From an uncultured Clostridia bacterium (GTDB taxonomy: Bacteria; Bacillota; Clostridia; TANB77; CAG-508), in contig CALXEV010000002.1 in NCBI GenBank assembly GCA_944387425.1, positions 13,673-77,672 of the forward strand: a DNA stretch of 64,000 nt, given 5' to 3'. Both the position numbers and the translations under genes were made by a program. The notes below the pieces were generated by a model that had not been told where the DNA came from, did not search any database, and was given only the letters and a program-made list of their open reading frames with translations. Positions 516 through 56,532 of the stretch are shown here, piece by piece; within the stretch, counting starts at the first letter, position 1, and every line of letters starts with the position of its first letter.

Positions 516-601
516 TTGTCAATAAGGTAGGGAAAAAACAATTGTCATAAAGGTTCATCCCGATGACAAAAATTTGCCATTAAGGTACGTCCCCGTGACA
601 A
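516..601 (-). repeat. Three tandem copies of the module-1 hairpin repeat: one half copy, one degenerate copy and one good copy
   Basis: The copies are ttgtcaataaggtaggg (516-532), ttgtcataaaggttcatcccgatgacaa (542-569) and ttgccattaaggtacgtccccgtgacaa (574-601). The last is near-identical to the copies at 1300 and 31437. Confidence 0.8.
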
Positions 602-617
602 AAAACAGGAGCAAAAA

Positions 618-1262
618 ATGAACAAGAGAACTATAAAAAGAGAATTAATAACAATATTTTGGATATTTATAATAGGCAGTATATTAGGTTATATTTTTGA
701 AATGACTGTAGTGTTATTTCAAAAAGGACATTTTGAAACAAGACAAGGTTTAATATATGGACCATTTATACCGGTATATGGAATTGGAGGAATAGTATAT
801 TACATATTGTTAAGTCAAATAGAGACCAGAAATAAAGTTAAAATATTTTTTATAACTATGGTCTTAGGAGGAGTTACCGAATACATTAGTTCTTATGTAC
901 AAGAAAAAGTGTTTGGTACAATATCTTGGGATTACACATATATGCTATTTGATATAAATGGAAGAACAAGTTTACTACATTGCACATATTGGGGAATTGC
1001 AGGTGTAATATATGTTTCTTTTATAGAACCAGGTATAAAAAAATTGAAAGAGCATACAGAAAATCCAAGCCTACAAGTAATGACTTTAGTTTTAGTGATT
1101 TTTATGGTATTTGATATAAACATATCTTGCCTTGCATCTACAAGACAAGCAAATAGAAGAAAAAACATTCCACCTCAAAATAAAATAGATGTATTTTTAG
1201 ATAAACATTATCCTGATGAATATATGAATTCAATTTATACAAATATGAAAGTTAAAAATTAG
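618..1262 (+). CDS. Polytopic membrane protein, resembling the 'putative ABC-transporter type IV' (DUF1113) family
   Basis: The 214-aa ORF has an RBS (aggag) upstream and several hydrophobic helices. The N-terminal pattern FxIGSxLGYxxExxxxxxxxGxFxxRxGxxxGPFxPxYG fits that family from memory. Confidence 0.6.
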   Translation: MNKRTIKRELITIFWIFIIGSILGYIFEMTVVLFQKGHFETRQGLIYGPFIPVYGIGGIVYYILLSQIETRNKVKIFFITMVLGGVTEYISSYVQEKVFGTISWDYTYMLFDINGRTSLLHCTYWGIAGVIYVSFIEPGIKKLKEHTENPSLQVMTLVLVIFMVFDINISCLASTRQANRRKNIPPQNKIDVFLDKHYPDEYMNSIYTNMKVKN

Positions 1263-1299
1263 CTTAAAAAACTAATTGTATCAACTATTAATAATAAAT

Positions 1300-1327
1300 T
1301 TGCCACTAAGGTACGTCCCCGTGACAA
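1300..1327 (-). repeat. Module-1 hairpin repeat copy
   Basis: The sequence ttgccactaaggtacgtccccgtgacaa differs by 1 nt from the copies at 574 and 31437. Confidence 0.85.
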
Positions 1328-1404
1328 AAAATTAGTCATAACTTTAGTACAACCCACATAAAATTGAAAAGGTCAACAAAAACAATACAAAGGAGAGAAA
1401 GTTT

Positions 1405-4008
1405 ATGTGGGAAATTTTGAAAAAGGAAGATGTGCTAAAGAAAATAGGCTCTAACGAAAAAACAGGTCTTGGAAGAAGAGATATAAAACAGCGAAAGCAA
1501 AAATACGGCTTAAACAAATTAGAAGACAAGCCACAAGAAAGCTTGCTAGTAAAATTTATTAAACAATTTGATGATTTTATGATAATTATTCTAATTGTTG
1601 CCTCAATAATATCTGCAGGAGTTTCTTATATACAAGGAGAAAATGACTATGTTGATTCAATTATCATAATTGCTATAGTTATTTTAAATGCTCTTATGGG
1701 TGTAATACAAGAAGCTAAAGCAGAAAAAGCAATTGAATCATTAAAAAAGATGACGCCACCTAAAGCAAAAGTATTAAGGGAAAGTGTAACAACAGAAATT
1801 AATGCAGAAGATTTAGTTCCAGGAGATATTATAATATTAGAAGCGGGAAATTATGTCCCTGCTGATTGTAGACTATTAGAAACTCATAATTTAAAAATTG
1901 AAGAATCAAGTTTAACAGGAGAAACAGAACCTGTTGAAAAAAATGCAGATATAATTTGCAAACAAAATGTACCACTAGGAGATAAGCTCAATATGGCATT
2001 TATGGCAAGTATTGTTGTAAATGGTCATGCAAAAGCAGTTGTTACAGAAATAGGAATGAACACAACTGTTGGAAAAATAGCAAATATGATGCTTCAAGAT
2101 GAAGCTCCAGAAACTCCAATCCAAAAAAAGCTAGAGCAAGTAGGTAAAATACTTGGAATATTATGCCTAGTAATATGTGTTATAATATTTGCTATTGGAC
2201 TAATAAATAAAATAGAACCAATTGAAATGTTTATGACATCAGTTGGGTTGGCAGTAGCTGCAATACCAGAAGGACTTCCTGCTATAGTAACAATTATGTT
2301 ATCTATAGGAGTAACAAAAATGGCAAAAAACAACTGCATAATTAGAAAACTTCCAGCTGTTGAAACATTAGGAAGTAGTAGGGTAATTTGCTCAGATAAA
2401 ACTGGTACATTAACACAAAATAAGATGACAGTTGTAGAAATAAAAGCAAGAGATGCTGATTTAACAAGTGAACTTAGCTGTATGTGTACAGACTGTGAGA
2501 TTATTCGTAAAAGAGGAAAATTAGAAATAAATGGTGAACCAACAGAAATTGCATTAGTTCAAAACGCTTTAAACAGGAACAAAAATAAAACAGAATTAGA
2601 ACAAAACATGCCAAGAGTAGAAGAAATACCATTTGATTCAAATAGAAAAATGATGACAACTATTCATAAAAAAGAAAATAAATATCTTGTTATAACAAAA
2701 GGTGCGCCAGATGTTCTAATAGAAAAATGTAAATTAACATTTGATGAAAAAAGAAAAATCCAAAGAGAAAATATGCAAATGGCAGAAAAGGCTTTAAGAG
2801 TAATTGCTGTATCATACAAAGAATTAGATTTTCTACCTATAAAGATAGATTCTCAAACAATTGAAAATAATTTGAATTTTGTTGGATTAGTAGGAATGAT
2901 AGATCCTCCACGAGAAGGAGTTAAAGAAGCGGTTAAAACATGTAAACAAGCAGGAATAAAAACAGTTATGATAACAGGTGACCACATAGAAACAGCAAAA
3001 GCTATAGCAAAACAACTTGATATATTAGGAGTAAAAGATAAAGCAATAACAGGTCAAGAGTTGGATAGAATTTCACAAGAAAGATTAGAAAAGGAAATTA
3101 GTTTATATTCAGTATTTGCGAGGGTTACACCTGAGCATAAAGTTAGAATAGTAAAAGCGTGGCAGAAAACAGGTGCAGTTGTTGCAATGACTGGTGATGG
3201 CGTAAATGATAGCCCAGCATTAAAAAATGCTGACATTGGAATTGCAATGGGAAAGAGCGGAACTGATGTGGCAAGAAATGCATCAGACATGATTTTAACA
3301 GATGATAACTTTGTAACAATTGTAAAAGCAATCAAGCAAGGCAGAAATATATATGATAATATAAAAAAAGCAATACATTTTTTAATTGCAACAAATATAG
3401 GAGAAATCATAACAATATTTATGGGCTTAATTCTTGGTTTTAAATCAACATTACTAGCAATTCAACTTTTATGGATTAATTTAGTAACAGACTCATTACC
3501 AGCAATTGCAATAGGTCTAGAGCCACCTGAAAAAGACATTATGAGAAGAAAACCTGTAAATAGTAAAAAAAGTATATTTGCAGATGGACTATGGAATAAA
3601 ATAATAATAGAGGGTATTATGCTAGGTACACTTACATTGTTATCATTTAGTATAGGAAATAAATATTATGATTTAGAAGTGGCTAGAACAATGGCATTTA
3701 TTTCACTTGGATTAATGGAACTTGTACATAGTTTTAATATTAAAAGCGAAGACTCAATATTTAAAGTTGGAATATTTGAAAATAAGTTTTTAATTGGAAG
3801 CTTTATATTAGGAGTATTTGTTCAAACAATAGTTGTTTTCATTCCAGCACTGGCAGACATATTCCAATTAGTTCAACTTACTCAAGAACAATGGCTGATA
3901 ACAATCGGAATATCACTTTTACCAATCCCATTAATGGAAATACAAAAGAAAATCCATGAAATAAGATTTGGAAAAGTAGTTTATATAAAAGAAAAGACTG
4001 CAATTTAA
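1405..4008 (+). CDS. P-type cation-transporting ATPase of the Ca2+ (PMCA/SERCA-like, P2A) type
   Basis: The 867-aa protein has the phosphorylation motif DKTGTLT, the TGES actuator motif (SLTGET), the hinge TGDGVNDSPALK and 10 predicted TM segments. An RBS (aaaggagag) lies upstream. Confidence 0.92.
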   Translation: MWEILKKEDVLKKIGSNEKTGLGRRDIKQRKQKYGLNKLEDKPQESLLVKFIKQFDDFMIIILIVASIISAGVSYIQGENDYVDSIIIIAIVILNALMGVIQEAKAEKAIESLKKMTPPKAKVLRESVTTEINAEDLVPGDIIILEAGNYVPADCRLLETHNLKIEESSLTGETEPVEKNADIICKQNVPLGDKLNMAFMASIVVNGHAKAVVTEIGMNTTVGKIANMMLQDEAPETPIQKKLEQVGKILGILCLVICVIIFAIGLINKIEPIEMFMTSVGLAVAAIPEGLPAIVTIMLSIGVTKMAKNNCIIRKLPAVETLGSSRVICSDKTGTLTQNKMTVVEIKARDADLTSELSCMCTDCEIIRKRGKLEINGEPTEIALVQNALNRNKNKTELEQNMPRVEEIPFDSNRKMMTTIHKKENKYLVITKGAPDVLIEKCKLTFDEKRKIQRENMQMAEKALRVIAVSYKELDFLPIKIDSQTIENNLNFVGLVGMIDPPREGVKEAVKTCKQAGIKTVMITGDHIETAKAIAKQLDILGVKDKAITGQELDRISQERLEKEISLYSVFARVTPEHKVRIVKAWQKTGAVVAMTGDGVNDSPALKNADIGIAMGKSGTDVARNASDMILTDDNFVTIVKAIKQGRNIYDNIKKAIHFLIATNIGEIITIFMGLILGFKSTLLAIQLLWINLVTDSLPAIAIGLEPPEKDIMRRKPVNSKKSIFADGLWNKIIIEGIMLGTLTLLSFSIGNKYYDLEVARTMAFISLGLMELVHSFNIKSEDSIFKVGIFENKFLIGSFILGVFVQTIVVFIPALADIFQLVQLTQEQWLITIGISLLPIPLMEIQKKIHEIRFGKVVYIKEKTAI

Positions 4009-4026
4009 CAGTCTTTTCTATTTTTT
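3991..4026. terminator. Bidirectional terminator between the convergent ATPase and htrA genes
   Basis: A 10-bp perfect stem, gaaaagactg (3991-4000) pairing with cagtcttttc (4009-4018), is flanked by an A-run on one side and a T-run on the other. It overlaps both gene ends. Confidence 0.75.
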
Positions 4027-5133
4027 GGCTAAAGTAACTTCAAATGTTTTTGTGATATAACCACGACTAATATTAATAGAAACTTTATCTCCTGGAAGCT
4101 TTGAATAGATATATTCTTTTAATTCAATCATATTATTAATTACATTACCATCAATTGATGTAATAATATCACCAACTTGAATTCCGCTCGAAAACGCAGG
4201 ACTATTTTCAGCAATTTGTACAATATATATTCCAGAAGAATAGTTAGGGCTTGTAGAGATAAAAGGAATTACTTCTTTATCATATGCCCAAATACCAAGG
4301 AAAGCTTCATCAAAATTATTATCATTAACAAACTTTTCTATAACAGGCTTAACTACATTAATTGGAACAGCAAAACCTATACCCTCAGCAGAAGAAATCT
4401 TAACAGTATTTACACCGATTACTTCTCCATTTGGCAAAATAAGCGGACCCCCACTATTACCGGGATTGATTGAGGCATCAGTTTGAATTAAATCAGTCAT
4501 ATAAGAAACAGAATTATTTTCTTCAATTTTAATTGTTCTATTTGTAGCACTAATTATACCAGAAGTAACAGTTCGTCTAAATTCATATCCTATAGGATTT
4601 CCTATAGCATAAACAGTCTCACCTGTCTTAATCTTAGAAGAATCACCAATAGTAGCATAAGGTAAATCTGTAGCATTAATTTTTGTAAGAGACAAATCTA
4701 ATTCTGAATCACACCATACAACTGAACCTTCGTAGGTATATCCATTTTCTAATGTAATATAACAAGTGCTAAGAGTTTCTCCAGTAACATGACAATTGCT
4801 TAAAATATATCCATTACTTGATACAATTATTCCTGTACCAAGACCAAGTTCATTAATAGAACTATTTGATGAGAATATTGAATTAGAATGAGATTTTATT
4901 TTTGAAATACCAACGACACTTTGAGAAACATTTTCTACCATATTTGTTATTGATATGCTATTTTCTAAGACATTATCCACGGTTTGAGTTTGTGAAGATG
5001 TTCCTGTACGGGTTATGTTATATTCTGGAGTAACATCAATGCCTTGATATGTAGTGTAAAAATAATATGCTCCCAATACTAATCCACAAACTGATAAAAC
5101 TATGATTAAAAATTTTCCAATCTTTTTCAACAT
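4018..5133 (-). CDS. htrA: HtrA/DegP-family serine protease (trypsin-like domain plus PDZ), membrane anchored
   Basis: The protein has the catalytic GNSGGPL motif, the His/Asp context (SNCHV, DLSL), a C-terminal PDZ-like region (GIYIVQIAENSPAFSSGIQVGDIITSIDG) and an N-terminal TM anchor. The track ORF starts at GTG 5160, but ATG 5133 has a better RBS (ggtga) and gives an MLKKIGKF N-terminus. Confidence 0.88.
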   Translation of the reverse strand: MLKKIGKFLIIVLSVCGLVLGAYYFYTTYQGIDVTPEYNITRTGTSSQTQTVDNVLENSISITNMVENVSQSVVGISKIKSHSNSIFSSNSSINELGLGTGIIVSSNGYILSNCHVTGETLSTCYITLENGYTYEGSVVWCDSELDLSLTKINATDLPYATIGDSSKIKTGETVYAIGNPIGYEFRRTVTSGIISATNRTIKIEENNSVSYMTDLIQTDASINPGNSGGPLILPNGEVIGVNTVKISSAEGIGFAVPINVVKPVIEKFVNDNNFDEAFLGIWAYDKEVIPFISTSPNYSSGIYIVQIAENSPAFSSGIQVGDIITSIDGNVINNMIELKEYIYSKLPGDKVSINISRGYITKTFEVTLAKK

Positions 5134-5237
5134 ATAGATCACCAATATTAGTATGCTCACAATATAGCCAAGTTAATCTTAATAGAATAAGTTATGCAAA
5201 AATATTTCACAATAAAGAAAAATTTTCTACAAAAAAA

Positions 5238-5266
5238 TTGCAAAAAATACAAAATAATGGTACAAT
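5238..5266 (+). promoter_or_regulatory. Sigma-A type promoter for the NRPS operon
   Basis: TTGCAA (5238-5243), a 17-nt spacer and TACAAT (5261-5266), with TG at the extended -10 position. Confidence 0.6.
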
Positions 5267-5303
5267 ATGGAAGTGTAGAATATACTGAAAAAGGGTGAAA
5301 AGG

Positions 5304-8300
5304 ATGTTGGGGAAAAATTTAAATGATTTAACAAATTCCCAAAAATCAATTTGGGTAACAGAACAATACTATAAAGGCACAAGCGTAAATAATATTTGTG
5401 GAACAGCAATAATATATGAAAAAGTAGACTTTCTGATTTTAGAGAAAGCCATAAAAATTGTGTGCCAAAAACATGATAATTTTAAAACAAAACTAAAGAT
5501 AAAAGAAGATAATATACGACAAACATTTGAAGAACCTTTAAATAGTGAAATACAAATGATAAAAGTTGACAGTAAAGAAGAACTAGAAAAAAGAAGAGAG
5601 GAAATTGTAAGAAAACCTTTTGACGTAAATCAACATTTATTTAAATTCTATATTTTTAAATTTTCAAATGATTATGGGGCTTTTATGCTCAATATACATC
5701 ATTTAATTTCTGACGCGTGGACTTTAGCGCTTATTTGTAATGAAATAATCAAAACATATTCAGCAATAAAACAAAATAAAGAAGTAGAAACAAAGGCTAT
5801 ATATTCATATATAGACTATATTAATTCTGAAAAAGAATATCAACAAAGTGAAAAATATCAAAAAGATAAAAAATATTGGCTTGAAAAATATCAAACAATA
5901 CCAGAAGTTGCAAGAATTCCTGGTAGCAAATATGAGAATGATAAAATAACAAATATAAAAGGTGAAAGAACTCAATTTTCAGTAAAAAAAGATGAAATTA
6001 ATAAAATAAAAGAATACTGTAAAGAGAATAAAATTTCTTTATATAATTTCTTTATGGCAGTTTTTGCTATATATATTGCAGAAATATCAAATTTAGATGA
6101 TTTTGTTATAGGAACACCAATTTTAAATAGAACTAATTTTAAAGAAAAAAATTGTGCTGGTATGTTTATAAATGTAGCACCATTAAGAATTAATTTTAAA
6201 GAAGATATAGAATTTAAAGAATTTGTTAAAAACATTGCAATAGATAGTATGAATATGTTAAAACACCAAAAATATTCATATCAATCTTTACTTGAGGAAT
6301 TAAGAAAAAAAGACATTAACATACCTAATTTATATAATATTTTATTATCATATCAAATAACAAATACTCAAATGAGTGGAGGAGATATTAAATATAAAAC
6401 AGAATGGACATTTAATGGATGTTCAGCAAATGATTTAGACATACAAATATATGATATAAATGATACAGGGAATTTGAATATAGCATATGATTATAAAAAG
6501 AGCATTTATACAAAAAAAGATATAGAAAATTTACATAGTAGAATACTTTATATAATTAAACAAATTATTGAACAGAACAATATAAATATGCAAGATATAG
6601 AGATTATCACACCAGAAGAAAAGGAAAAAATATTAAATGAGTTTAATAATACTGAAGCCAAATATGATGAAAATGCTTTAATAATTAAATATTTTGAAGA
6701 ACAAGTGGTAAAAGAACCAAATAAAATTGCATTAATATCAAACGGAAATAAAATAACTTATGAAGAACTAAATAAAAAAGCAAATATGCTTGCCAAGTAT
6801 ATTGTAAATAGAGGAATAAAAAAAGATGATGTTATTGGTATAATGGTTAATCGTTCACCAGAAATGATAATTGGACTAATTGCAATACTAAAGTGCGGAG
6901 CAACATATTTACCTATAGACTCAGAATATCCATTAGATAGAATATCATATATGATTGAAAATAGTGAAACAAAGACAGTATTAGTAAATAATAAGACGGA
7001 AAAATTGATTCCGCAAAATTGTTCAAAAATAAATATTGAATTAAAAAATACTGAAATATATAAAGAAACAAATATTCAAAATATCAATATAGGAATAGAA
7101 ACAAATACATTAGCATATCTGATATATACATCAGGTTCTACAGGAAAACCAAAAGGAGTAAAAATAACACATAGAAATCTTAATAATTTTATAATAGGTA
7201 TGAAAAAAATTATAGACTTTAATCCAAATAAAGTCATGGTATCTGTTACAACAATTAGTTTTGATATTTTCGGATTAGAAATATGGTGTTCTCTTTCTTC
7301 AGGACAAACACTAGTGCTTGCTAATGAAGAAGAACAAAACACACCTTCATTATTAAATAAATTATGTATGGAAAACAAAGTTAATATTATACAAACAACT
7401 CCATCAAGATATTCAACTATTTTTGAAAATCCAAATAATTTAGGATTTTTAAAAAATATATCAGAAATATTGGTTGGTGGAGAAGCTATAAATAACAAAT
7501 TATTGCAAAATATGAAAAAATTTTCTAATGCAAGAATTTTTAATATGTATGGACCAACAGAAACAACAATATGGTCAACAGTAAAGGAATTGACAAACGA
7601 GAAAAAAATTACGATTGGAAAACCTATAGCAAATACGCAATGTTATATACTAAATAAAAATCATAAGGTATTACCTACAAACATAGCAGGAGAATTATAC
7701 ATTGGAGGAGATGTGTTATCAAAAGGATATTTAAAACGAGATGATTTGAATGCAGAAAAATTTATAAGATCTCCATTAAAAAAACATGAAAAGATATATA
7801 ACACAAATGATTTAGCATATTTTAAAGATAATGGTGAAATAGTACACCTTGGTAGAACAGATTACCAAGTAAAAATACGTGGATTTAGAGTTGAACTTGG
7901 AGAAATAGAAAATATTATTGAAAAGGAAAAAAGCATTACACAATGTGTTGTTGTAAAAAAGAAATTATTAAATGGACATGATGCCTTAATAGCATATTAT
8001 ACAACAAACCAAGAAAATGACGATAATAATTTAGAAAACAGGTTAAGAGAAGAATTAAACAAAGAGTTACCACAATATATGGTTCCTCAATATATTATAA
8101 AGTTGGCACAAATGCCATATACTCCAAATGGAAAAATTGATAGAAAGTCATTACCTGAACCACATATCAAAAACGAAAGAAAAGAAATTATAAAACCTAG
8201 AAATGAATTAGATAAAGAGTTAATAAAAATATTAAGTAAAATGCTACGTGTAGAAAACATTAGTATTGAAGATAGCTTGCTTGAATTAGGCGGAGACTCA

Positions 8301-19260: not shown

Positions 19261-19263
19261 ATT

Positions 19264-31146: not shown

Positions 31147-31404
31147 TATAATATAAAATCCTATGAAAAAGCAAAGTAGATATATTTATAAAGTATCACA
31201 GAGAAAATGACATAGCTGAGAGTCATTTATACAAAATATATTGAAAATTCACTTTGGAGGACTTACCTTGAAAATAGTAGAGGTAAGCGGTTGAACCGTT
31301 AAAACTACAATGAGGTTAATAATGCTAATATAAATGTTAGCTATTAATAAAATTAGGTGGTAACACGTTTAAATTCGTCCTATATGAATAGGGCGAATTT
31401 TTTT
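31147..31404 (+). promoter_or_regulatory. T-box riboswitch leader, Phe-specific
   Basis: AGAGA- and GNUGAGAG-type Stem I elements are present (cacagagaaaatg, gctgagagtc). The specifier is UUC (31248-31250), followed by A. The T-box sequence is aaattaggtggtaacacg (31349-31366). The terminator is aattcgtcct/agggcgaatt (31372-31399) plus a T-run. Confidence 0.88.
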
Positions 31405-31464
31405 GAGCAAAAAAGAACCGGCACCAAATGTCAAATTTGCCACCAAGGTACGTCCCCGTGACAA
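31405..31464 (-). repeat. Composite intergenic repeat (module 2 plus module 1) inside the pheS leader
   Basis: gagcaaaaaagaaccggcaccaaatgtcaaat is followed by ttgccaccaaggtacgtccccgtgacaa. Its reverse complement aligns almost base for base with 19165-19223. Confidence 0.88.
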
Positions 31465-31487
31465 AATTTATGAAAGGAGAAAATCGC

Positions 31488-32567
31488 ATGAAAGAAAAAA
31501 TTTCAAAAATCAAACAAAACGCACTAGAAGAAATATCAAATATACAAGAGAACTTAAAAGGTGCAGAGCTAGAAAATGCATTGAAAACTTTAAACGAAAT
31601 AAAAGTAAAATACTTAGGAAAAAAAGGAGAATTAACAAGTGTATTAAGAGGAATGGGAGCATTAGCACCAGAAGAAAGACCTGTTATTGGAAGCCTTGTA
31701 AATGAAGTAAGAGAAGAAATAGAAAACTCTTTAAAAGAAAAAGAAGAAAAACTAAAAGAAGCAGAATTGCAAGAAAAACTTGAAAAAGAGACAATAGACA
31801 TCACACTTCCAGGAACAAAAATAAAAAGAGGAAGCAAACACCCTGTAAACAGAGTAATAGAAGAAATAGAAGATTTATTTGTGTCTATGGGATATGATGT
31901 TATACCAGGACCAGAATTAGAAACAGACGAATTTTGTTTTGAAAGATTAAATCTTCCAAAAGGACATCCAGCAAGAGATATGCAAGACAGTTTTTACATA
32001 ACAAATGAATATTTATTAAGAACTCAAACATCAGCAGTTCAAGCAAGAGCAATGCTTGCAAACAAAGAAAAAACACCAATCAGAATGATATGTGCAGGAA
32101 AAACATATCGTAGAGAAGATGATGCAACACATTCACATCAATTTGGTCAAGTAGAAGGATTAGTAATAGATAAAAAAGAAAGAAATGTATCATTAGCTGA
32201 TTTAAAAGGAACATTAGAAGTATTTGTAAAAAAGCTAATAGGAAAAAACTGCGAATTACGTTTTAGACCAAGTTATTTCCCATTCACAGAACCATCATAT
32301 GAAGTAGATGTTAGTTGTTTCAAATGTGGTGGAAAAGGATGTAATCTATGTAAACACACAGGCTGGATAGAAGTATTAGGTTCAGGAATAGTACATCCAA
32401 ATGTATTGAAAATGAATGGGTATGACCCAAATGAATATGGAGGATTTGCATTTGGAACAGGACTTGAAAGACTAGCAATGTTTAAATATGGAATACCTGA
32501 TATGAGATATTTATATGCAAATGATGTTAGATTTTTAAATCAATTTGACAGAAAGGATGAGGAATAA
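31488..32567 (+). CDS. pheS: Phenylalanyl-tRNA synthetase alpha subunit
   Basis: The protein has [11 protein letters not shown], a class II core ([11 protein letters not shown], GxGxGxER-like [10 protein letters not shown]). ATG 31488 follows the RBS gaaaggag. The track start 31428 is a read-through of the repeat. Confidence 0.95.
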
Positions 32568-41865: not shown

Positions 41866-41877
41866 AAAATAAAGAAT

Positions 41878-41914
41878 TTGTCAAGAGGGGCGGTCCTTCT
41901 TGACAAATTTTTTT
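41878..41914 (+). terminator. Module-1 repeat copy acting as the adhesin terminator
   Basis: ttgtcaagaggggcggtccttcttgacaa (41878-41906) has perfect 8-bp outer arms and is followed by attttttt. Confidence 0.8.
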
Positions 41915-41941
41915 GACAAATTATGTTAAGCATGATATAAT
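41913..41941 (+). promoter_or_regulatory. Consensus sigma-A promoter with extended -10 for the 42004-45804 gene pair
   Basis: TTGACA (41913-41918), a 17-nt spacer ending in TGa, and TATAAT (41936-41941). Confidence 0.7.
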
Positions 41942-47658: not shown

Positions 47659-47705
47659 TTATTAATTTTTTAAACTTATATAGAATAAAACGGAGGTGAA
47701 TTGTA

Positions 47706-47936: not shown

Positions 47937-47948
47937 TTGGAGGAAAAT

Positions 47949-48182: not shown

Positions 48183-48211
48183 AAGTTATACCATGAAAGG
48201 AATGGTAGAAC

Positions 48212-48718
48212 ATGCAAAAAAGGCTAGAAGTTGGTCAAATTGTTAATACATTTGGTATAAAAGGAGAAGTTAAAGTAATGCCTTTTACAGATGATATAAC
48301 AAGATTTGACGACCTAGAAAAAGTATATGTTAAAACTAAAAAAGAAGAAAAACTATATAAAATTCAAAATGTGAGATATCACAAAAATATGGTATTAATC
48401 AAATTTGAAAATATAGAAACACCAGAACAAGCTGAATTGCTAAGAAATGCTTTTCTAGAAATAGACAGAGAAGATGCAATACCACTAGAAGAAGGAACAT
48501 ATTATATAGCTGATTTAATTGGTATGGAAGTATATTCAGATGATGGAAATAAGCTAGGAATAGTAGAAGACATCTATAATACTGGAGCAAATGACATATA
48601 TGTAGTAAAAAATGATTTAGGAAAACAAATTTTATTACCAGGAATCAAAGAGGTAATAAAAGAAGTTAACTTAGATACAGAAAAAATTACAGTACATCTT
48701 ATACCTGGATTGATTTAA
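48212..48718 (+). CDS. rimM: 16S rRNA processing protein RimM
   Basis: The N-terminal VGQIVNTFGIKGEVKV and a PRC-barrel C-terminus are present, in the conserved operon position. Confidence 0.92.
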   Translation: MQKRLEVGQIVNTFGIKGEVKVMPFTDDITRFDDLEKVYVKTKKEEKLYKIQNVRYHKNMVLIKFENIETPEQAELLRNAFLEIDREDAIPLEEGTYYIADLIGMEVYSDDGNKLGIVEDIYNTGANDIYVVKNDLGKQILLPGIKEVIKEVNLDTEKITVHLIPGLI

Positions 48719-48736
48719 AAAAGTATGGAGGAAAAA

Positions 48737-49462: not shown

Positions 49463-49511
49463 CTTTCAATTCAAGGCACCGCTTGCATAGAAAAAGAAGG
49501 AGGTAAATACG

Positions 49512-49997
49512 ATGGATATCATAAAATCAATAGAACATGAACAACTAAAAAACTCTATTCCTGACATCAAAGTTGGAAATACAGTTAGAGTACATGTTAA
49601 AATAAAAGAAGGAAACAAAGAAAGAATCCAAGTATTTGAAGGAATTGTAATAAAAAAACAAGGTGGAGGATTAAACGAAACATTCACAGTAAGAAAAATA
49701 TCTTATGGTGTAGGTGTTGAAAAAACATTCTTAATTCATTCACCATTAGTTGAAAAAGTAGAATTAGTTAGAGTTGGTAAAGCTAGACGTGCTAAACTTT
49801 ACTATTTAAGAGAAAGAACAGGAAAAGCTTCTAAGACTAAAGAATTAGTTGGAGCAAGAATAGAAGATAAAGAAATCACTCTTAAAGAAGATTTAGCTGA
49901 AGAACCAGCTAAAGAAGCTGTTGAAACACCAGTTGAAGCAGAACCAGCAAAAACTGAAGAAGCAGTTGCTGAGAATACAGAAAAAGAAACAAAATAA
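49512..49997 (+). CDS. rplS: 50S ribosomal protein L19 with an acidic Ala/Glu/Pro-rich C-terminal extension
   Basis: The L19 core ([37 protein letters not shown]...[16 protein letters not shown]) is followed by about 45 extra residues (...[36 protein letters not shown]). Confidence 0.93.
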
Positions 49998-50008
49998 TTT
50001 AATAAAAA

Positions 50009-50035
50009 ATGCATCTCACAAGGGGTGTATTTTTT
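50009..50035 (+). terminator. Probable terminator of the rpsP-rplS operon
   Basis: The hairpin atgcatctc/ggggtgtat has 9 pairs, 3 of them G-U, and is followed by ttttt. Confidence 0.5.
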
Positions 50036-50195
50036 ATTTTTCTAAAATAGATTTATTAGGTAAAATTCACAAAAATTTCAAATAAAAAATGAACAAAAAA
50101 ACTTTACAAAAATGCACAAGTAATATAAAATAAAAAAGAATAAATAGGATAGAATAAAATGCAAAAGATTTAGATAGAAAGGATAGACGCAAAAG

Positions 50196-52592
50196 ATGAA
50201 AGAAAAAAATGAATTAAGTTATAAAGACTTAAAAATGACATGTAATGAAAACATGTTTCACTTTGAGACGACAAAAGAATTAGAACCTATAAATGATGGA
50301 ATAGGCCAAGAAAGAGGAATAAAAGCTTTAGAGTTTGGAATAGATATAAATGTAAAAGGATATAACATTTATCTTGAAGGACCTAGTGGTGTTGGAAAGA
50401 CAATGTATACTAAAAATTATTTAGAGAGTATTGCACCAAAAAAGAAAGTTCCAAATGATTGGTGTTATATATACAATTTTCAAAATCCAAATGAACCAAT
50501 TGCAGTATCATTGCCTGCAGGACAAGGTAAAGAATTCAAAGAAAGTATGGATGGTTTCATAAAAGAAGTAAAAAAAGACATCAAAAAAACTTTTAATGCA
50601 GATGATTTTGAAAAAGAAAAAGCTTTAATTAAAAAAGAATTTGAAGAAAAAAGAGAAAGCTTATTAACAAAGTTAAATGAAGATTCTTTAAAATATGGCT
50701 TCCATGTAAAATCAGCTCAAAATGGTATCTATATGTTTCCAGTAGTTGATGGAAAAGTTGTTCAAGAAGAAGAATTTGAAAAATTAGATGAAGAAATAAA
50801 AAAACAATATGAAGAAAAATCAGTAATAGTACAACAACAAATAATGGAAGTAATAGGACAAATAAAACAAATAGAAAGAGAATCAGATAAAAAGGTATCT
50901 GAATGGCAATCAAATGTTGCATTATTAACAGTAAATGCGCATATAAACTATATAAAATCTAAATATAAAAGAAATAAAAAAATTAATCAATTTTTAAATG
51001 ATGTAAAACAAGATGTTTTGAAAAATGTATCTTACTTTTTAGAAGAAGACAAACCACAACAACCTCAACAGGCTCAACCATCTCCAATGCAAAGAAAACA
51101 AGACCCATGCTTAAATTATAGAGTAAATTTGTTTATAGATAATAGTACAAGAGAAGGTTGCCCAGTAATAATGGATTCTAATTACACATATCAAAATTTA
51201 TTTGGAAAATTAGAATATGAAAATTACTATGGTTCATTGAAAACAGATTTTACAATGTTAAAACCAGGATTAATGCACAAAGCAAATGGAGGATATATAA
51301 TATTCCAAGCAAAAGATTTATTAACAAATGCAATGTGTTATGAAGAACTAAAAAGAATATTAAGGGTAAAAGAAATTGCAATAGATAATACAATGGAACA
51401 ACGTTCATCAATGGCAATGATATCATTAAAACCAGAGCCAATTCCATTAGATGTAAAAGTAATACTTATAGGAAATGCTAGTATTTATCATACACTATTA
51501 TCAATGGATTCTGATTTTAGAAAACTATTTAAAATCAAAGTTGAATTTGAAGAAACAGCTCCAATTGATGAAACAAATGTAAATAAACTTGCAAGATTTG
51601 TTCACACATTCTGCGAGCAAGAAGAATTACCACCACTTGACAAATCAGCAATGGCAAGGCTTGTAGAATTTGCTTCAAGATTAGCAGGAGATAAAGATAA
51701 ATTATCTACAAGATTTACAGATATAGGTCAAGTAGTTGGAGAAGCAGGAACATGGGCAAAACTAGACAAAGCAAAAGTTGTTACAAAACAATATATAGAT
51801 AAAGCATTAGCAGAAAGAATTGACAGAATAAAGAAATATGATGAAAAATATACAGAAATGATAAAAGAAAACACTTTATTAATAAATACAAAAGGTTCTT
51901 TAGTAGGAGAACTAAATGGATTGACAGTAATGACAATTGGAGATTACACTTTTGGAAAACCATCAAAAATTACAGTTAATACTTATACTGGAAAAGGTGG
52001 AGTTGTAAACATAGAAAGAGAAGTTGAACTTTCTGGTTCTACACACTCAAAAGGTGTATATATATTATCTGGATATTTAGGAGAAATGTTCGCACAAGAC
52101 ATTCCATTATGCTTAACAGCAAGTATATGTTTTGAACAATTATATAATGGTGTTGATGGAGATAGTGCATCAAGTACAGAACTATATGGACTATTATCAA
52201 GCTTATCAGGAATTCCTATTAAACAATCAATTGCGGTAACAGGTTCAGTAAATCAAAAAGGACAAATACAACCAATTGGTGGAGTAAATGAAAAAATTGA
52301 AGGATATTTCCAAATTTGTAAAATGCGTGGATTAGATGGTTCTCATGGAGTTATGATACCTGTTCAAAATGTAAATAATCTTCAATTATCAGATGAAATA
52401 GTAGATGCCGTAAAAAATAAGAAATTCCATATTTATGCAGTTTCTACAATAGAAGAAGGAATTGAAGTATTAACAGGAGTACCAGCTGGAAAGAAAGATA
52501 AAGATGGAAAATTCCCAGCAGGAACTGTAAATCATTTAGTTTATGAAAAATTAAAGAAATATGCAAAAATTGTAGAGAAAAATTGTCAGTAG
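50196..52592 (+). CDS. Lon-like protease of the LonC type (AAA-like domain with a coiled-coil insertion, plus a Lon S16 proteolytic domain)
   Basis: The Walker A motif is GPSGVGKT. A long charged coiled-coil insert follows it. The C-terminal Lon protease domain reads GDSASSTELYGLLSSLSGIPIKQSIAVTGSVNQKGQIQPIGGVNEKIEG, containing the Ser-Lys dyad. Confidence 0.8.
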   Translation: MKEKNELSYKDLKMTCNENMFHFETTKELEPINDGIGQERGIKALEFGIDINVKGYNIYLEGPSGVGKTMYTKNYLESIAPKKKVPNDWCYIYNFQNPNEPIAVSLPAGQGKEFKESMDGFIKEVKKDIKKTFNADDFEKEKALIKKEFEEKRESLLTKLNEDSLKYGFHVKSAQNGIYMFPVVDGKVVQEEEFEKLDEEIKKQYEEKSVIVQQQIMEVIGQIKQIERESDKKVSEWQSNVALLTVNAHINYIKSKYKRNKKINQFLNDVKQDVLKNVSYFLEEDKPQQPQQAQPSPMQRKQDPCLNYRVNLFIDNSTREGCPVIMDSNYTYQNLFGKLEYENYYGSLKTDFTMLKPGLMHKANGGYIIFQAKDLLTNAMCYEELKRILRVKEIAIDNTMEQRSSMAMISLKPEPIPLDVKVILIGNASIYHTLLSMDSDFRKLFKIKVEFEETAPIDETNVNKLARFVHTFCEQEELPPLDKSAMARLVEFASRLAGDKDKLSTRFTDIGQVVGEAGTWAKLDKAKVVTKQYIDKALAERIDRIKKYDEKYTEMIKENTLLINTKGSLVGELNGLTVMTIGDYTFGKPSKITVNTYTGKGGVVNIEREVELSGSTHSKGVYILSGYLGEMFAQDIPLCLTASICFEQLYNGVDGDSASSTELYGLLSSLSGIPIKQSIAVTGSVNQKGQIQPIGGVNEKIEGYFQICKMRGLDGSHGVMIPVQNVNNLQLSDEIVDAVKNKKFHIYAVSTIEEGIEVLTGVPAGKKDKDGKFPAGTVNHLVYEKLKKYAKIVEKNCQ

Positions 52593-52617
52593 GGACGGTC
52601 CTTACTGGCAATTTTTT
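52583..52617 (+). terminator. Module-1 repeat copy acting as the LonC terminator, overlapping the last codons and stop of the gene
   Basis: ttgtcagtagggacggtccttactggcaa (52583-52611) is followed by tttttt. The TAG stop (52590-52592) lies inside the left arm. Confidence 0.85.
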
Positions 52618-52715
52618 ATTATAATATTTTATTTAATATACACAATAAAAAATATCTTTAAGTCTTTAACTTAAAGATATCAGAGTGTTGACAAAGTATA
52701 TAAAAATTCGAGTGC

Positions 52716-52744
52716 TTGAATTTTTATGTATATTATGATAGAAT
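52716..52744 (+). promoter_or_regulatory. Promoter for ORF 52829
   Basis: TTGAAT (52716-52721), a 17-nt spacer ending in TGa, and TAGAAT (52739-52744). Confidence 0.55.
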
Positions 52745-52828
52745 AAATTTAATTCGTTTAATCCCCAAAGAGAATCATTCAAAATCTCAGAGAGGATCCC
52801 TCACAAGTAAATACAAGGAGGATTATCT

Positions 52829-53224
52829 ATGATAAGCAAAGCTCAACAAGTACGGATGAGAAGGACTAATGCATTCAAGAGAACTTTATTCTTAAAATTG
52901 GATGAAATCTTTGACTGGATATTGGATATTATAAACAAAAAAACAGATGAAAGAGATTACCATAAATTAATATTGTACATTGACGAATATAGGTATCTTA
53001 GAGTTTTGGACAACGAAAAAAAATGCGAAGATAATTATGGATGCTATGATTTGAGAAAAATTCTTAGCGAATATGACGAAGAATTTTTTGTTGAAAAATT
53101 GAAAAAGAAAATAGAAGATGAAGAAGGATATAAAGTGAAATTGAAAGAAGAATGTTTAAATGGTGCTAAGAAGCCATCTACCGTTATTATTGTTGAAGTT
53201 AGCGTAGATTTTAGCTTAGGTTAA
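52829..53224 (+). CDS. Hypothetical 131-aa protein
   Basis: A strong RBS (aaggagg) lies 7 nt upstream. I recognise no motif. Confidence 0.55.
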   Translation: MISKAQQVRMRRTNAFKRTLFLKLDEIFDWILDIINKKTDERDYHKLILYIDEYRYLRVLDNEKKCEDNYGCYDLRKILSEYDEEFFVEKLKKKIEDEEGYKVKLKEECLNGAKKPSTVIIVEVSVDFSLG

Positions 53225-53411
53225 AAGCTAAGGTACCCAGTTTTCGTAAGAAAGCTAGGTATTTACTTTTTTCTAAATGAAATATTAATTTTATCTATTA
53301 TTTTGAAAATATTAAAAATTAGCCTATCACAAGAATATTATTTGCAAAATTCGACAAAAGTGTTATAATTAATTTGTCCGAGGAATACATTAGTATAGTA
53401 AGGAGGGCATT

Positions 53412-53840
53412 ATGATTTACACTGAGCAAACCAAAAAAGCCATGATAATTGCATATAATGCTCATCATGGACAAGTCGACAAATCTGGAGTACCATATAT
53501 TTTCCATCCAATCCATGTAGCAGAACAAATGGAAACTGAAGAAGAATGTATTGTTGCACTTCTACATGATACTGTAGAAGACACAAACATAACTTTTGAA
53601 GTTTTGGAAAAAGAATTTTCTGCTACTGTCATTGAAGCATTAAAACTTCTCACACATGACGAGTCAATTGATTATTTTGACTATGTCAGAAAGTTGAAAA
53701 ATAACCCAATTGCCAAAAAAGTAAAACTTGCAGACTTATATCACAATAGTGATATAACTAGGATGGAAAATCCTACAGAAAAGGACTGGAAGCGCAAAGA
53801 AAAATATCATAAAGCAATACTGATTTTGCTTGAAGAATAG
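53412..53840 (+). CDS. Small HD-domain protein of the RelA/SpoT hydrolase type (candidate small alarmone hydrolase)
   Basis: AYNAHHGQVDKSGVPYIFHPIHVAE and ALLHDTVEDT are the (p)ppGpp-hydrolase HD signature. The protein is 142 aa with no synthetase domain. The RBS is aaggaggg. Confidence 0.8.
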   Translation: MIYTEQTKKAMIIAYNAHHGQVDKSGVPYIFHPIHVAEQMETEEECIVALLHDTVEDTNITFEVLEKEFSATVIEALKLLTHDESIDYFDYVRKLKNNPIAKKVKLADLYHNSDITRMENPTEKDWKRKEKYHKAILILLEE

Positions 53841-53846
53841 CCCTGC

Positions 53847-53883
53847 ACCAAAAGAGAGACTGTAATAGTCTCTCTTTTGGTGT
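53847..53883. other. Perfect 16-bp hairpin after the HD gene, with no U-tail
   Basis: caccaaaagagagact (53847-53862) pairs with agtctctcttttggtg (53868-53883) around the loop gtaat. No T-run follows on either strand. Confidence 0.6.
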
Positions 53884-53890
53884 AAAAAAG

Positions 53891-53919
53891 TTGAAAAAAG
53901 TATAAAAATATATTAAAAT
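53891..53919 (+). promoter_or_regulatory. Putative ogg promoter
   Basis: TTGAAA (53891-53896), a 17-nt spacer and TAAAAT (53914-53919). The predicted transcription start falls at the edge of the repeat copy at 53924. Confidence 0.45.
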
Positions 53920-53923
53920 AAAT

Positions 53924-53952
53924 TTGTCACAAGGGACGTTCCTTAGTGGCAA
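53924..53952 (+). repeat. Module-1 hairpin repeat copy in the ogg 5' region
   Basis: ttgtcacaagggacgttccttagtggcaa is followed by aaaaaa rather than a T-run. Confidence 0.85.
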
Positions 53953-53986
53953 AAAACGATTAATTTAATTGCATAAGGAGGATACA

Positions 53987-54868
53987 ATGCAAGAACAAGA
54001 ATATAAATTAGAAAATATAGATTCATTTGAATTAGCAGATATATTTGAATGTGGACAGTGTTTTAGATGGAATAAACAGGAAGATGGAAGTTACACAGGA
54101 ATATTCAAAAGAAATGTAATTAATGTAAAAAAAGAAAATTGTCATCAAGGTACGTCCCTAGTGACAATAAAAGGAATATGTGATGGTAATATAAAAGATG
54201 TAGTAGAAGATTATTTTGACTTAAATAGAAACTATGAAGAAATAAAGGAAAAGTTATCAAAAATAGATGATAATGTAAAAACAAGTATAGAATATGGAAA
54301 AGGAATAAGAATTTTAAATCAAGATTTATGGGAAATGATTATATCTTATATAATTTCTGCAAACAATAATATACCACGTATAAAAGGAATTATAGAAAGA
54401 TTATCAAAAGCATATGGTGATGAAATAGAATGGAATGGAAAAAAATACTACACTTTTCCTACACCTGAGCAATTGAAAGATGTAACAGTAGAGGATTACA
54501 GAAAATTAGGAACAGGTTTTAGAGATATCCGCTTATATGAAACAGTGCATATGATTTTAGATAAAAAGGTTGATTTAGAACAATTACAAAATGAACCAGA
54601 TACAAACAAAGTTAGAGAACAACTTTTAACACTTTCTGGAGTTGGACCTAAAGTGGCTGATTGTATTCTATTATTCTCAACATTAAAACGTTTTGAAGTT
54701 TTTCCAATAGATGTATGGGTACGTAGAGTAATGAATGAGCTATATATAAAAAATGAAGATGAAACAAAAGTTAATAAAAAGCAAATTGAAAAGCTTGCAC
54801 ATGAAAAGTTCGGAAATCTTGCAGGAATTGCACAACAATATTTGTTTTATTGGAAAAGAGAAGCATAA
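53987..54868 (+). CDS. ogg: 8-oxoguanine DNA glycosylase / AP lyase (Ogg; HhH-GPD superfamily)
   Basis: The OGG N-domain motif FECGQCFRW is present. The HhH-GPD region reads LLTLSGVGPKVADCILLF (catalytic Lys) and FPIDVWVRR (Asp). ATG 53987 follows the RBS aaggagg. Confidence 0.88.
   Translation: MQEQEYKLENIDSFELADIFECGQCFRWNKQEDGSYTGIFKRNVINVKKENCHQGTSLVTIKGICDGNIKDVVEDYFDLNRNYEEIKEKLSKIDDNVKTSIEYGKGIRILNQDLWEMIISYIISANNNIPRIKGIIERLSKAYGDEIEWNGKKYYTFPTPEQLKDVTVEDYRKLGTGFRDIRLYETVHMILDKKVDLEQLQNEPDTNKVREQLLTLSGVGPKVADCILLFSTLKRFEVFPIDVWVRRVMNELYIKNEDETKVNKKQIEKLAHEKFGNLAGIAQQYLFYWKREA
54139..54167 (-). repeat. Module-1 repeat copy located in frame inside the ogg coding sequence
   Basis: ttgtcatcaaggtacgtccctagtgacaa shares the core caaggtacgtccc and the palindromic ttgtca/tgacaa arms with the intergenic copies. 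It encodes CHQGTSLVT. Confidence 0.8.
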
Positions 54869-54924
54869 CAGAAAGTATAATTTATAAAATATTACTAAAA
54901 ACACAAAGTATACTGAATAAAATC

Positions 54925-54953
54925 TTGACATTTTGTTCAGTATACTTTATAAT
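54925..54953 (+). promoter_or_regulatory. Consensus sigma-A promoter for the ATPase gene
   Basis: TTGACA (54925-54930), a 17-nt spacer and TATAAT (54948-54953). Confidence 0.7.
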
Positions 54954-54972
54954 ATATATAAGAGGTGATAAA

Positions 54973-56487
54973 ATGTCTATTATAAAAGAAGAAGATATTT
55001 TAAAAGTATTAATTTCATATAATCCTTGGTGGAGAAACTTTGAAGTTCCAAAAGAAGAAGTAAAAGAAATGAAGCGTAAAGCTTTTTTTGAAGCACAAGA
55101 GGCTTTTCTAAATAATGAAATTAGGAGATTTGTACTATTAACAGGAGCCAGAAGAGTTGGAAAAACCACAATAGTGTTTCAACAAATAAAAGAATTGATA
55201 GATAAAGGAAAAGACCCTAAACATATTTTATATGTTTCTTTTGATAACCCAATTTTAAAATTTTGTACACTAGATAAATTGATAGAGTTGTATGAGATAA
55301 ACTTTACTGGAGATGGAGAAAAATATCTATTTTTAGATGAAATACAATATGCTGAAGACTGGAATAAATGGTTAAAAGTAATATATGATAAAAATACCAA
55401 TATTCATATTATGGCAACAGGAAGTGCAAGTCCTATCATAAATAAAGGGTTAGCCGAAAGTGGTGCTGGAAGATGGATAACAATAACTGTTCCAACATTA
55501 TCGTTTTATGAATATTGTCAATTAAAAAGTATTAATGAAAAGAAAATAACGGTTAAAGATTTTAATAATATGACAGTAGAGGAAGTAAATAAATTATTAG
55601 TAAAGGATTTAGCAAAAAAAACAGAAATAGAAGCAATAGATAATAATATACCTTCAGATTTAAAAATAGAAGATTTAGAAAACTTAGACGAAAAGAAACT
55701 AGGAGATATCATAAATTCTTTATTAGGATTACAAAAACATTTTAATAGATATTTGAGGATAGGAGGATTTCCAGAACTTGTTTTAGCAACAGATGATGCT
55801 TATGCTGGAAAAATTCTAAGAGAAGATATAGTTGATAAAGTTTTAAAAAGAGATATGCCTAGTCTATTTGGAATTAGAAATATCAGTATATTAGAAAAAG
55901 TATTTTTATATTTATGTTTTGAATCTTCTAATATAATCAATTACAACAAAATGAGTCAAGAACTAGATAACACATCAATAGCAACAATACAAGATTACAT
56001 TATGTATTTAAAAAATGCCAATCTAATTTATGAAAGTAAACCAATTGGTGGAAAAGTTTTAAAATCAAAACCTAAGGTATATATAGCAGATAGTGCTATT
56101 AGAAATGCAGTTTTAATGAAAGATGATATTATAACAGATCCAACAGAAATGGGATATATTGTAGAAACAGCAGTATATAGACATGTATACACTTATATGC
56201 AAAAATTTAATGGAACTGTAGGATATTATAGAGATTCAAAAACAGAAAAAGAAATTGATATTGTAGCAGAATCTGTAAAAACAAACTTATATATAGAAGT
56301 AAAATATAGAGAGAAGACTGCAATAAAAAAAGACAATTCATTATATAATATTCCTAAACAAAACGATAAAATTTATGTTATAACAAAAGACCCTATGGAT
56401 TATGGTATTACAAAATTAGAAAATAATAAAAAGGTTGTAAGAATACCAGCATTTGCATTTTTATATTTGCTAGGAAAACAAGAATAA
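54973..56487 (+). CDS. AAA-type ATPase of the AAA_14 + DUF4143 family (COG1373-like)
   Basis: The Walker A motif is LTGARRVGKTT and Walker B is YLFLDEIQ. The C-terminal region is typical of DUF4143 proteins. ATG 54973 follows the RBS agaggtga. The track start 54850 overlaps ogg and spans the promoter. Confidence 0.8.
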   Translation: MSIIKEEDILKVLISYNPWWRNFEVPKEEVKEMKRKAFFEAQEAFLNNEIRRFVLLTGARRVGKTTIVFQQIKELIDKGKDPKHILYVSFDNPILKFCTLDKLIELYEINFTGDGEKYLFLDEIQYAEDWNKWLKVIYDKNTNIHIMATGSASPIINKGLAESGAGRWITITVPTLSFYEYCQLKSINEKKITVKDFNNMTVEEVNKLLVKDLAKKTEIEAIDNNIPSDLKIEDLENLDEKKLGDIINSLLGLQKHFNRYLRIGGFPELVLATDDAYAGKILREDIVDKVLKRDMPSLFGIRNISILEKVFLYLCFESSNIINYNKMSQELDNTSIATIQDYIMYLKNANLIYESKPIGGKVLKSKPKVYIADSAIRNAVLMKDDIITDPTEMGYIVETAVYRHVYTYMQKFNGTVGYYRDSKTEKEIDIVAESVKTNLYIEVKYREKTAIKKDNSLYNIPKQNDKIYVITKDPMDYGITKLENNKKVVRIPAFAFLYLLGKQE

Positions 56488-56492
56488 AAAAA

Positions 56493-56532
56493 TTGTCAAC
56501 AGAAACGGTTCACTTTACCGTCCTGTTGACAA
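56493..56532. terminator. Bidirectional terminator between the ATPase and leuS genes; an extended variant of the module-1 repeat
   Basis: ttgtcaacag...ctgttgacaa forms a 10-bp outer stem and acggt/accgt forms an inner stem. The hairpin is flanked by aaaaaa and tttttt. On the minus strand the core caggacggt resembles cagggacggtcc. Confidence 0.8.

Follow-up and report, generated by a model that had tools for sequence, protein, structure and literature searches.

What are the short hairpin repeats that recur along a 64,000-nt stretch of the genome of an uncultured Clostridia bacterium (GenBank assembly GCA_944387425.1), and how did they come to be multiplied there? The stretch, referred to below as the window, corresponds to positions 13673-77672 of contig C2 (C2:13673-77672) in a genome of 1.42 Mb with 48 contigs and 28% GC, and the public sequencing runs that hold the window sequence are chicken-gut metagenomes. 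An earlier note, made from the letters of the window alone, had taken these repeats for a mobile element resembling repetitive extragenic palindromic (REP) sequences or miniature inverted-repeat transposable elements (MITEs), acting as single-stranded nucleic acid and filtered by selection on orientation. This interpretation is supported by a transposase gene that is flanked by the repeats, by inverted doublets, and by orthologous sites in related genomes that are empty. From these comparisons of sequence we argue that the repeats, hereafter module 1, are probably a REP-type family multiplied by a single-copy Y1/HUH REP-associated tyrosine transposase (RAYT) of a long, TIRYT-like form, here named RAYT-1, with mobilisation that would be single-stranded and a putative secondary use as terminators.

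The motif lies far above expectation and is not restricted to the window, in agreement with the spread element that had been presumed. With at most one mismatch allowed, the window has 10 occurrences of its core, GGGACGNNCCTT (0.22 expected from shuffles), a strict regular expression gives 58 module-1 matches in the whole genome, and nhmmer (E<1e-4) yields 62 loci, a count that the covariance model reproduces. This model, R1, was built from an alignment of 51 genome-wide copies, the consensus of which is AAATTTGYCAC-AGGGACG(G/T)(T/A)CCTT-NN-TGRCAAATTT with a unit of ~34 nt. On the window, R1 recognises eight full copies (47-55 bits) and one degenerate copy; the earlier count of at least 10 copies stands for the full copies and, as a degenerate one, for the copy at 542, but that at 516 is only a 3'-half fragment and that at 56493 is unrecognised by R1. 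Only three of the 62 loci have midpoints deep inside open reading frames (ORFs) of at least 100 aa, and one of these is an ORF-calling artefact. A scan of the window at Rfam gathering thresholds gave no match at any copy, its sole hit being a T-box (31154-31385). In an exact-pattern scan of 185,579 species genomes one further genome matched, the metagenome-assembled genome (MAG) G019, and the exact module-1 family is therefore very narrow. Among 40 relatives searched with R1, 34 had no hits, three had one or two, and three congeners had 31, 15, and 9.

The statement that the window holds no RAYT or other transposase gene was literally true but misleading, as the gene for RAYT-1 ends 115 nt before window base 1. 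The search for such a gene that had been suggested in the earlier note was made with the Pfam Y1_Tnp profile and found two Y1 genes in the genome, RAYT-1 and RAYT-2 (40% identical to each other), of which the former lies beside the window between module-1 copies. RAYT-1 (C2:12857-13558; Y1_Tnp match C2:12896-13222) encodes 233 aa from a TTG start and is intact, with HAH as its HUH motif and the catalytic tyrosine in YIYNNPVKAG (class-2 Y---NP motif). It scores 83.4 bits on the NCBIfam model NF047646 REP_Tyr_transpos (“REP-associated tyrosine transposase”; cut-off 80) and, at 22.3 bits, stays below the cut-off of 55 for the IS200 model NF033573. The sole PDB sequence match is E. coli TnpA(REP), 4ER8, with HUH and tyrosine motifs aligned, and the same structure is the best fold match (E=1e-7, TM 0.70 on target) of an AlphaFold2 (AF2) model (pLDDT 85), followed by the IS608 and ISDra2 transposases. 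The model further predicts a C-terminal four-helix domain (residues 168-231) without a significant Pfam match, the only candidate being HTH_19 at E=0.21.

On its left, RAYT-1 is flanked by a module-1 copy 70 nt upstream (C2:12749-12786, +; L001 1356-1389(+)), and on its right by the copies at window positions 541-570 and 571-604, both on the minus strand, 655 nt downstream and past a gene for a 160-aa GNAT acetyltransferase (C2:13614-14093), the second of these copies being L001 2848-2881(-). RAYT-1 is bracketed by inverted module-1 copies, which is the arrangement of REPtrons and TIRtrons. The second gene, RAYT-2 (C3:25617-26393), is bracketed in the order “+,+ gene -,-” by a different repeat, module B, rather than by module 1.

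The same arrangement recurs around related enzymes from other organisms. A database search returned ~770 RAYT-1 homologues, the nearest non-self homologue being 58% identical, and flanks were examined for four of them (P0005, P0013, P0045, and P0053). Module-1-like hairpins in “+ gene -” order flank P0005 (58%), P0013 (56%), and P0045 (52%), reading TTGCCAC-AAGGGACGGAGC-TGGCAA, TTGACAAAAGGGACGGGGCAAAATGGCAA, and GTGTCAC-AGGGGACGGAG-TGACAC, respectively. In each case, one hairpin lies ~100-150 nt upstream (+) and one 10-70 nt downstream (-), and the contigs carry further hairpin copies and a “+-” pair. Of the 40 relatives, 24 carry RAYT-like genes, none of which exceeds 47% identity to RAYT-1, and at 10 of 12 RAYT loci in these genomes the gene has inverted flanks with the GGGAC motif or its complement and different arms (TGCCAAA..., GACCA..., TGTCCAAA..., GGGATT...). 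The likeness of the hairpins to module 1 thus rises with the likeness of the enzyme to RAYT-1, as a cognate pair predicts.

Comparison with the nearest congeners, G003 and G004 (8-oxoguanine glycosylase, Ogg, ~85% identical), which have neither module-1 copies nor RAYT-1, reveals sites from which the repeat is absent. In the T-box leader, both congeners keep the T-box and a unit resembling modules B and C (described below) and lack the 34-nt module-1 copy before the ribosome-binding site (RBS). Inside ogg, the full copy at 54136..54170 (-; 47.2 bits) is in frame and translated ENCHQGTSLVTI; the site reads AAAATTGTCATCAAGGTACGTCCCTAGTGACAAT in this genome and holds an unrelated stretch in 12 of 12 congeners, compared with 11 of which (the short form) it is 15 nt (five codons) longer with the frame kept. 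A further full copy, in sense orientation 32 nt upstream of the ogg start (53921..53955, +; 49.1 bits), has no corresponding module-1 copy in the congeners. No target-site duplication is visible at the two sites with empty orthologues (T-box leader and ogg). At the RAYT-1 locus itself, the neighbouring gene is not conserved in G003 and G004, so that an empty-site comparison is impossible there. In the spacer upstream of ogg, the congener G001 (L048) carries another GGGAC-tip repeat family with GGGAT.../...ATCCC arms; the repeats upstream of ogg differ between the two species, so that this one spacer has been colonised by different REP families. A second in-frame copy was observed in purA (C9:44478-44512), where it reads KLPQGRSFVANQ. 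At this spot, a palindromic insert of another kind is present in G003, and none in six other genomes; because of the insert in G003, purA is ambiguous as a third empty-site test.

Each module-1 unit forms a single hairpin, with a 3-nt tip and ~15 pairs. Among the 51 aligned copies, 50 have G.U at pair 13-23, and at pair 12-24 there are 32 with A-U and 18 with G.U; on the complement strand, these inner-stem G.U pairs become A.C mismatches. Predicted folding energies are -12.9 kcal/mol for the forward strand versus -9.9 for the reverse, with the forward strand more stable in 45 of 52 copies. From these pair counts and this preponderance the strand asymmetry is therefore real, and both the inner-stem G.T asymmetry and the better folding on one strand that had been read from the window copies are borne out. 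For the window copies, the R1 score differs by 17-31 bits between strands, and module 1 therefore has a clear polarity. The outer arms behave otherwise than had been supposed: a T opposite G at the variable arm position is found in five of the eight window copies, with none showing C opposite A, but the genome-wide figures are 13 U.G versus 10 C.A. Since the Y/R combinations are near-random across the genome (CG 16-17, UG 13, UA 12, CA 10), the five T.G arms of the window are a sampling accident, and arm variation is essentially independent change in two TTGYCA half-sites. Both invariant features, the G.T pair and the ACG tip, suggest a role in recognition rather than in stability.

Close pairs of module-1 copies repeat the order found around the transposase gene: 12 are “+ then -”, none is “- then +”, and two are same-direction tandems. 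A mechanism that would join these observations is one in which RAYT-1 recognises the hairpin on one DNA strand only, i.e., the GGGACG strand with the invariant inner-stem G.T pair, and seeds new copies by cutting that strand and joining it again. Selection might then retain copies where they are harmless or useful. Sense copies straight after stop codons could act through hairpin and U-tract as intrinsic terminators, antisense copies upstream of genes would fold more weakly and lack the U-tract, and the rare in-frame copies may persist in surface loops of proteins (Ogg and PurA).

Several observations weigh against multiplication by RAYT-1 in this manner. Within 20 kb of the fourth homologue examined, P0053 (49%), such hairpins are absent. 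The copies show no replication-strand bias (32 of 62 for all copies and 16 of 34 for singles), unlike IS200/IS605 elements, and there is no covariation between the arms at their Y/R positions in the genome-wide copies. All copies have AAATTTGYCA at the foot, where classical REPs have the guide tetranucleotide GT[AG]G, 0-2 nt 5' of the hairpin (no GTAG or GTGG occurs), and a simple terminator scan did not call the module-1 copies. Other points on this side also speak for a specific alternative, namely that these are REP-like hairpins not specifically mobilised by RAYT-1, which were moved in trans by another Y1 enzyme (RAYT-2 or a lost one) or are an inactive fossil with incidental adjacency. 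The right flank of RAYT-1 is not adjacent as in the homologues, being separated by the GNAT gene and 655 nt; G019 has 31 module-1-like hairpins, and another repeat flanks the single RAYT of that genome; and in four DNA runs from four studies covering 50.2-56.6 kb, all copies are kept, without insertion polymorphism among near-identical strains. Moreover, a GGGAC(G) tip is common to the flanks of many divergent RAYT paralogues and to modules B and C. We nevertheless consider this alternative unlikely, as the flank arms track the enzyme clade (the three closest homologues have TGYCA...TGRCA like module 1, the distant ones other arms), RAYT-2 is flanked by module B, and the nearest congeners lack RAYT-1 and module 1 alike.

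A second alternative holds that module 1 consists of host intrinsic terminators or RNA-stability hairpins that are kept alike by selection and gene conversion and are not mobile. Some substance comes from the placement of 59 copies (gene contexts from crude ORF calling), a placement that also speaks for the REP-type reading: 41 lie in co-directional, 15 in convergent, and three in divergent spacers, such that convergent spacers are enriched (15/59, p=5e-4) and divergent ones depleted (3/59, p=0.013). In co-directional spacers, the gene boundary closest to a sense copy is the upstream stop codon in 15 of 18 cases, often within ~10 nt (median ~3 nt), and the tails of sense copies are rich in T (5.4 T in 9 nt). 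Antisense copies divide nearly equally, with 12 of 22 nearer the next start; many abut the next RBS, and in the mRNA sense they have no U-tract (2.8 in 9). The earlier note had described copies at gene 3' ends as well folding and followed by T-runs, and those upstream of or inside genes as weakly oriented, correctly for the copies that it named. Genome-wide, the orientation bias that it expected survives as a positional partition of moderate effect between sense and antisense copies (Fisher p=0.02), but not as a net bias in co-directional spacers (18 sense versus 22 antisense).

Transcripts bear on the same question. RNA contigs over the upstream gene from three metatranscriptome runs of one study fit the window only to 52616, the 3' end of the copy at 52580, and no contig of these runs covers 52617-52800; a fourth run reads through. 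The contigs of the three runs leave the window at 52616 and rejoin it at 52800, with an intervening sequence found nowhere in this genome, which looks like a strain-level replacement or insertion beside the repeat. Because contigs also break at repeats, RNA support for termination is weak. The claim that such copies act as terminators is softened to a plausible function of the sense copies, with contigs that fit to 52616 in its favour. As an account of the whole family, termination without mobility is very unlikely: of the 40 copies between tandem genes, 22 are antisense and many of these abut an RBS, copies lie in frame inside ogg and purA, tandem and inverted doublets occur, the invariant asymmetric tip and G.T pair are needless for termination, a transposase is flanked by copies, and the nearest relatives terminate the same genes without module 1.

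That the palindromes might be double-stranded operator sites of a regulator, either the C-terminal helical domain of RAYT-1 or another helix-turn-helix (HTH) protein, could draw on arms that act as independent, non-covarying TTGYCA half-sites and on the predicted four-helix domain, but is highly improbable given that the majority of copies are found downstream of genes or in convergent spacers, with the promoter-rich divergent spacers depleted, that the conserved core is asymmetric and hence not a dyad, that copies lie inside coding sequence, and that the C-terminal domain has no significant HTH match.

If module 1 is a REP-type family served by RAYT-1, it can be set beside the REPtrons, i.e., REP/REPIN sequences with their RAYT (TnpA-REP), of E. 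coli, Pseudomonas, and Stenotrophomonas (Nunvar 2010, PMC2817692; Bertels & Rainey 2011, PMC3116915). As in these, imperfect palindromes of 20-40 nt (here 34 nt) are present in tens to hundreds of extragenic copies (here 62 loci), inverted doublets occur, one inversely flanked single-copy Y1/HUH gene belongs to each repeat family, and spacers after genes and between convergent genes are preferred. Occasional intragenic copies in repair genes, here ogg, are also known for REPs (PMC3733652), and RAYT-1 passes the REP_Tyr_transpos model with a predicted fold like 4ER8. Unlike in REPs, the invariant motif of module 1, GGGACG, is at the tip and inner stem, and the arms are AT-rich; unlike REPtron enzymes, RAYT-1 has an extra C-terminal helical domain of ~65-90 aa, and the host is a low-GC Clostridium rather than a proteobacterium.

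The TIRtrons and their TIRYT enzymes (Di Nocera 2013, PMC3733652), which were equated with TnpA-Y1 subclass 2.1 by Quentin 2018 (PMC6006769), provide a further point of comparison. TIRYT is likewise a longer RAYT-like protein with a C-terminal helical extension (HTH/DnaA_C-like there; four predicted helices in RAYT-1), and its gene lies inside inverted repeats with a shared G-rich motif, GGGG[AT][CG]A[CG], to which the (G)GGGACG[GT] of module 1 corresponds at 6-7 of the 8 positions, having a G at position 7 where the motif has an A. The flank of one paralogue, in G021, reads GGGGACAG and fits that motif exactly. Some TIR families are, like module 1, self-complementary, moderately abundant, and present in dimers (PMC3733652). 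Subclass 2.1 genes were described as having C-terminal HTH domains and no REP-like structures alongside (Quentin 2018, PMC6006769), in contrast to the clear hairpins at the flanks of RAYT-1 and their 62 loci. Firmicutes are not mentioned in the main texts of either study (Di Nocera 2013, PMC3733652; Quentin 2018, PMC6006769), and Group 1 RAYTs were noted in Clostridia by Bertels 2017 (PMC5581495), where abundant REPs are reported only for Groups 2 and 3.

With the ends of IS200/IS605 elements (IS608 and ISDra2) module 1 shares a Y1/HUH enzyme and the lack of a target duplication, and by analogy its hairpins may likewise be recognised on one DNA strand with non-canonical pairs, as are the subterminal hairpins of those elements. 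An IS200/IS605 insertion sequence (IS) proper was rejected on the grounds that there are no near-identical transposase copies (two genes, 40% identical) and that the IS200 score is 22.3 bits against a cut-off of 55. A DDE-type MITE would have TIRs that match a resident IS as well as a target-site duplication; no IS with module-1 ends was seen, no exhaustive IS search having been made. For its part, tnpB was not noticed beside either Y1 gene, no search aimed at tnpB having been made. CGTC-tagged REPs have an unpaired terminal CGTC tag, an 8-9 bp stem, a 4-5 nt loop, and a CCA tail (Di Nocera 2013, PMC3733652); membership in this class was rejected, as CGTC (the complement of GACG) is apical rather than terminal in module 1 and the stem has ~15 pairs. 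A CRISPR array was dropped as a candidate as spacers are absent, and so was a DNA-uptake sequence, which is at odds with the copy number and with a context of hairpins plus transposase.

Small intergenic repeats listed for Firmicutes include BOX and RUP of S. pneumoniae, EFAR of enterococci, and Bcr1 of B. cereus (PMC3733652). Like module 1, these are short non-coding repeats of low-GC Gram-positives that are modular or mosaic, often gene-adjacent, and transcribed. They are MITE-like elements of roughly 100-200 bp with terminal inverted repeats (TIRs), and no dedicated Y1 transposase is known for any of them. Module 1 differs in being a 34-nt hairpin with, probably, a cognate RAYT.

Tip-conserved GGGACG hairpins could, as we tentatively suggest, represent a third REP architecture beside the GTAG- and CGTC-tagged ones, serviced by long, HTH-bearing Y1 enzymes of the subclass 2.1/TIRYT type and possibly widespread in uncultured gut Clostridia (TANB77 and beyond), with arms that would co-diverge with the enzyme and a tip that stays fixed. 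If so, these families would form a natural series of enzyme-hairpin pairs from which a recognition code could be read, and the close and distant homologues with matching hairpins make the pairing open to test. Nearly all REP/RAYT systems characterised to date come from Proteobacteria, and here ~62 loci are found in a compact 1.4-Mb gut Clostridium, in which modules 1, B, and C together amount to ~200 repeat units. Such repeats break short-read assemblies, with unitigs ending inside copies, give stop codons and C-termini to several genes, sit in frame in ogg and purA, and probably provide terminators. In view of these assembly breaks, supplied gene ends, and in-frame copies, annotators of gut MAGs should therefore recognise them.

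Gene ends of this kind were observed at C2:12749-12786, C1:33811, C3:60105, and window 52580-52614, where genes end inside a module-1 copy, so that the repeat supplies their last codons and stop. The first of these is the histidine kinase gene upstream of RAYT-1, the last 13 codons and stop of which come from the copy, with the protein ending in ...KFATGTVLDGKF*. At C39:3534-4973, a module-1 copy and a module-B unit stand between spoIIIAA-like and spoIIIAB-like genes without an in-frame stop, so that the ORF upstream continues across the repeats and enters the start of the next gene.

Module B is a 32-nt unit, GGCATTTGGTGCCGGTTCTCTTTTGCCATTTT, often in tandem and with ~96 units in the genome, for instance at window positions 19196-19223 and 31405-31433 and, around RAYT-2, at C3:25563-25626 and C3:26493-26556. 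Module C, CAATTGGGACCGGGTCTTTTTTGRCA, has ~40 units. Of the 62 module-1 copies, 13 stand next to a B or C unit, forming mosaics like those called BIMEs (bacterial interspersed mosaic elements). Loci L026-L035 of G019 (e.g., G019:C12:15931-16134) are ~200-bp composite elements with module-1-like hairpins as TIRs; they are MITE/REPIN-like with a conserved interior, their ends read TGCCAA-GGGGACGTTCC-TTTTTGGCA, and in the interior the two halves of an inverted repeat, GATATATTAATATT...AATATTAATATATC, enclose a central segment that occurs in either orientation. An interior similar to that of the G019 elements, flanked by module B, was also seen in the genome studied here (C1 near 43000 and C18 near 1800).

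Within the window, the 3' part of the GNAT gene (1..421, +) lies between RAYT-1 and the right-hand repeat cluster, a group of three on the minus strand. The outermost member is a truncated fragment with the 3' half only (516..540, -), which was read by eye and is missed by R1, followed by the degenerate copy (541..570, -) with core GGGATGAACCTT, a one-mismatch core match (R1 16.8 bits, E=0.085), and by the full copy that forms the right-hand inverted flank of the RAYT-1/GNAT unit and abuts the RBS of gene 618-1262 (571..604, -; 48.3 bits). The next full copy is antisense, 33 nt past the stop of the same gene (1297..1330, -; 50.3 bits). A full copy at 19162..19195 (+; 55 bits) lies between two minus-strand genes, i.e., antisense, and is followed by a module-B unit (~19196-19223), and the copy in the 5' leader of gene 31488-32567 (31434..31467, -; 52.3 bits) stands between the T-box (31154-31385) with its module-B unit and the RBS. 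The full sense copy at 52580..52614 (+; 51.5 bits) overlaps the stop codon of gene 50196-52592, its hairpin of -19.6 kcal/mol being followed by TTTTTT. A longer hairpin between convergent genes (56493..56532, -), read by eye and missed by R1, shares TTGTCA/TGACAA arms and a GGACGGT half-core with module 1, and may be a diverged relative of it or an ordinary bidirectional terminator.

The full copy at 41875..41909 (+; 47.2 bits) is in sense orientation, 9 nt past the stop of the gene for a 1973-aa adhesin, and is terminator-like because its hairpin of -19.3 kcal/mol is followed by ATTTTTTT. Its 3' arm contains TTGACA, and a second TTGACA 7 nt further on opens a perfect TTGACA-17-TGnTATAAT promoter of the next gene (41913-41941). 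With hairpin and consensus promoter together at 41900-41941, the repeat region thus joins a terminator-like hairpin with a promoter.

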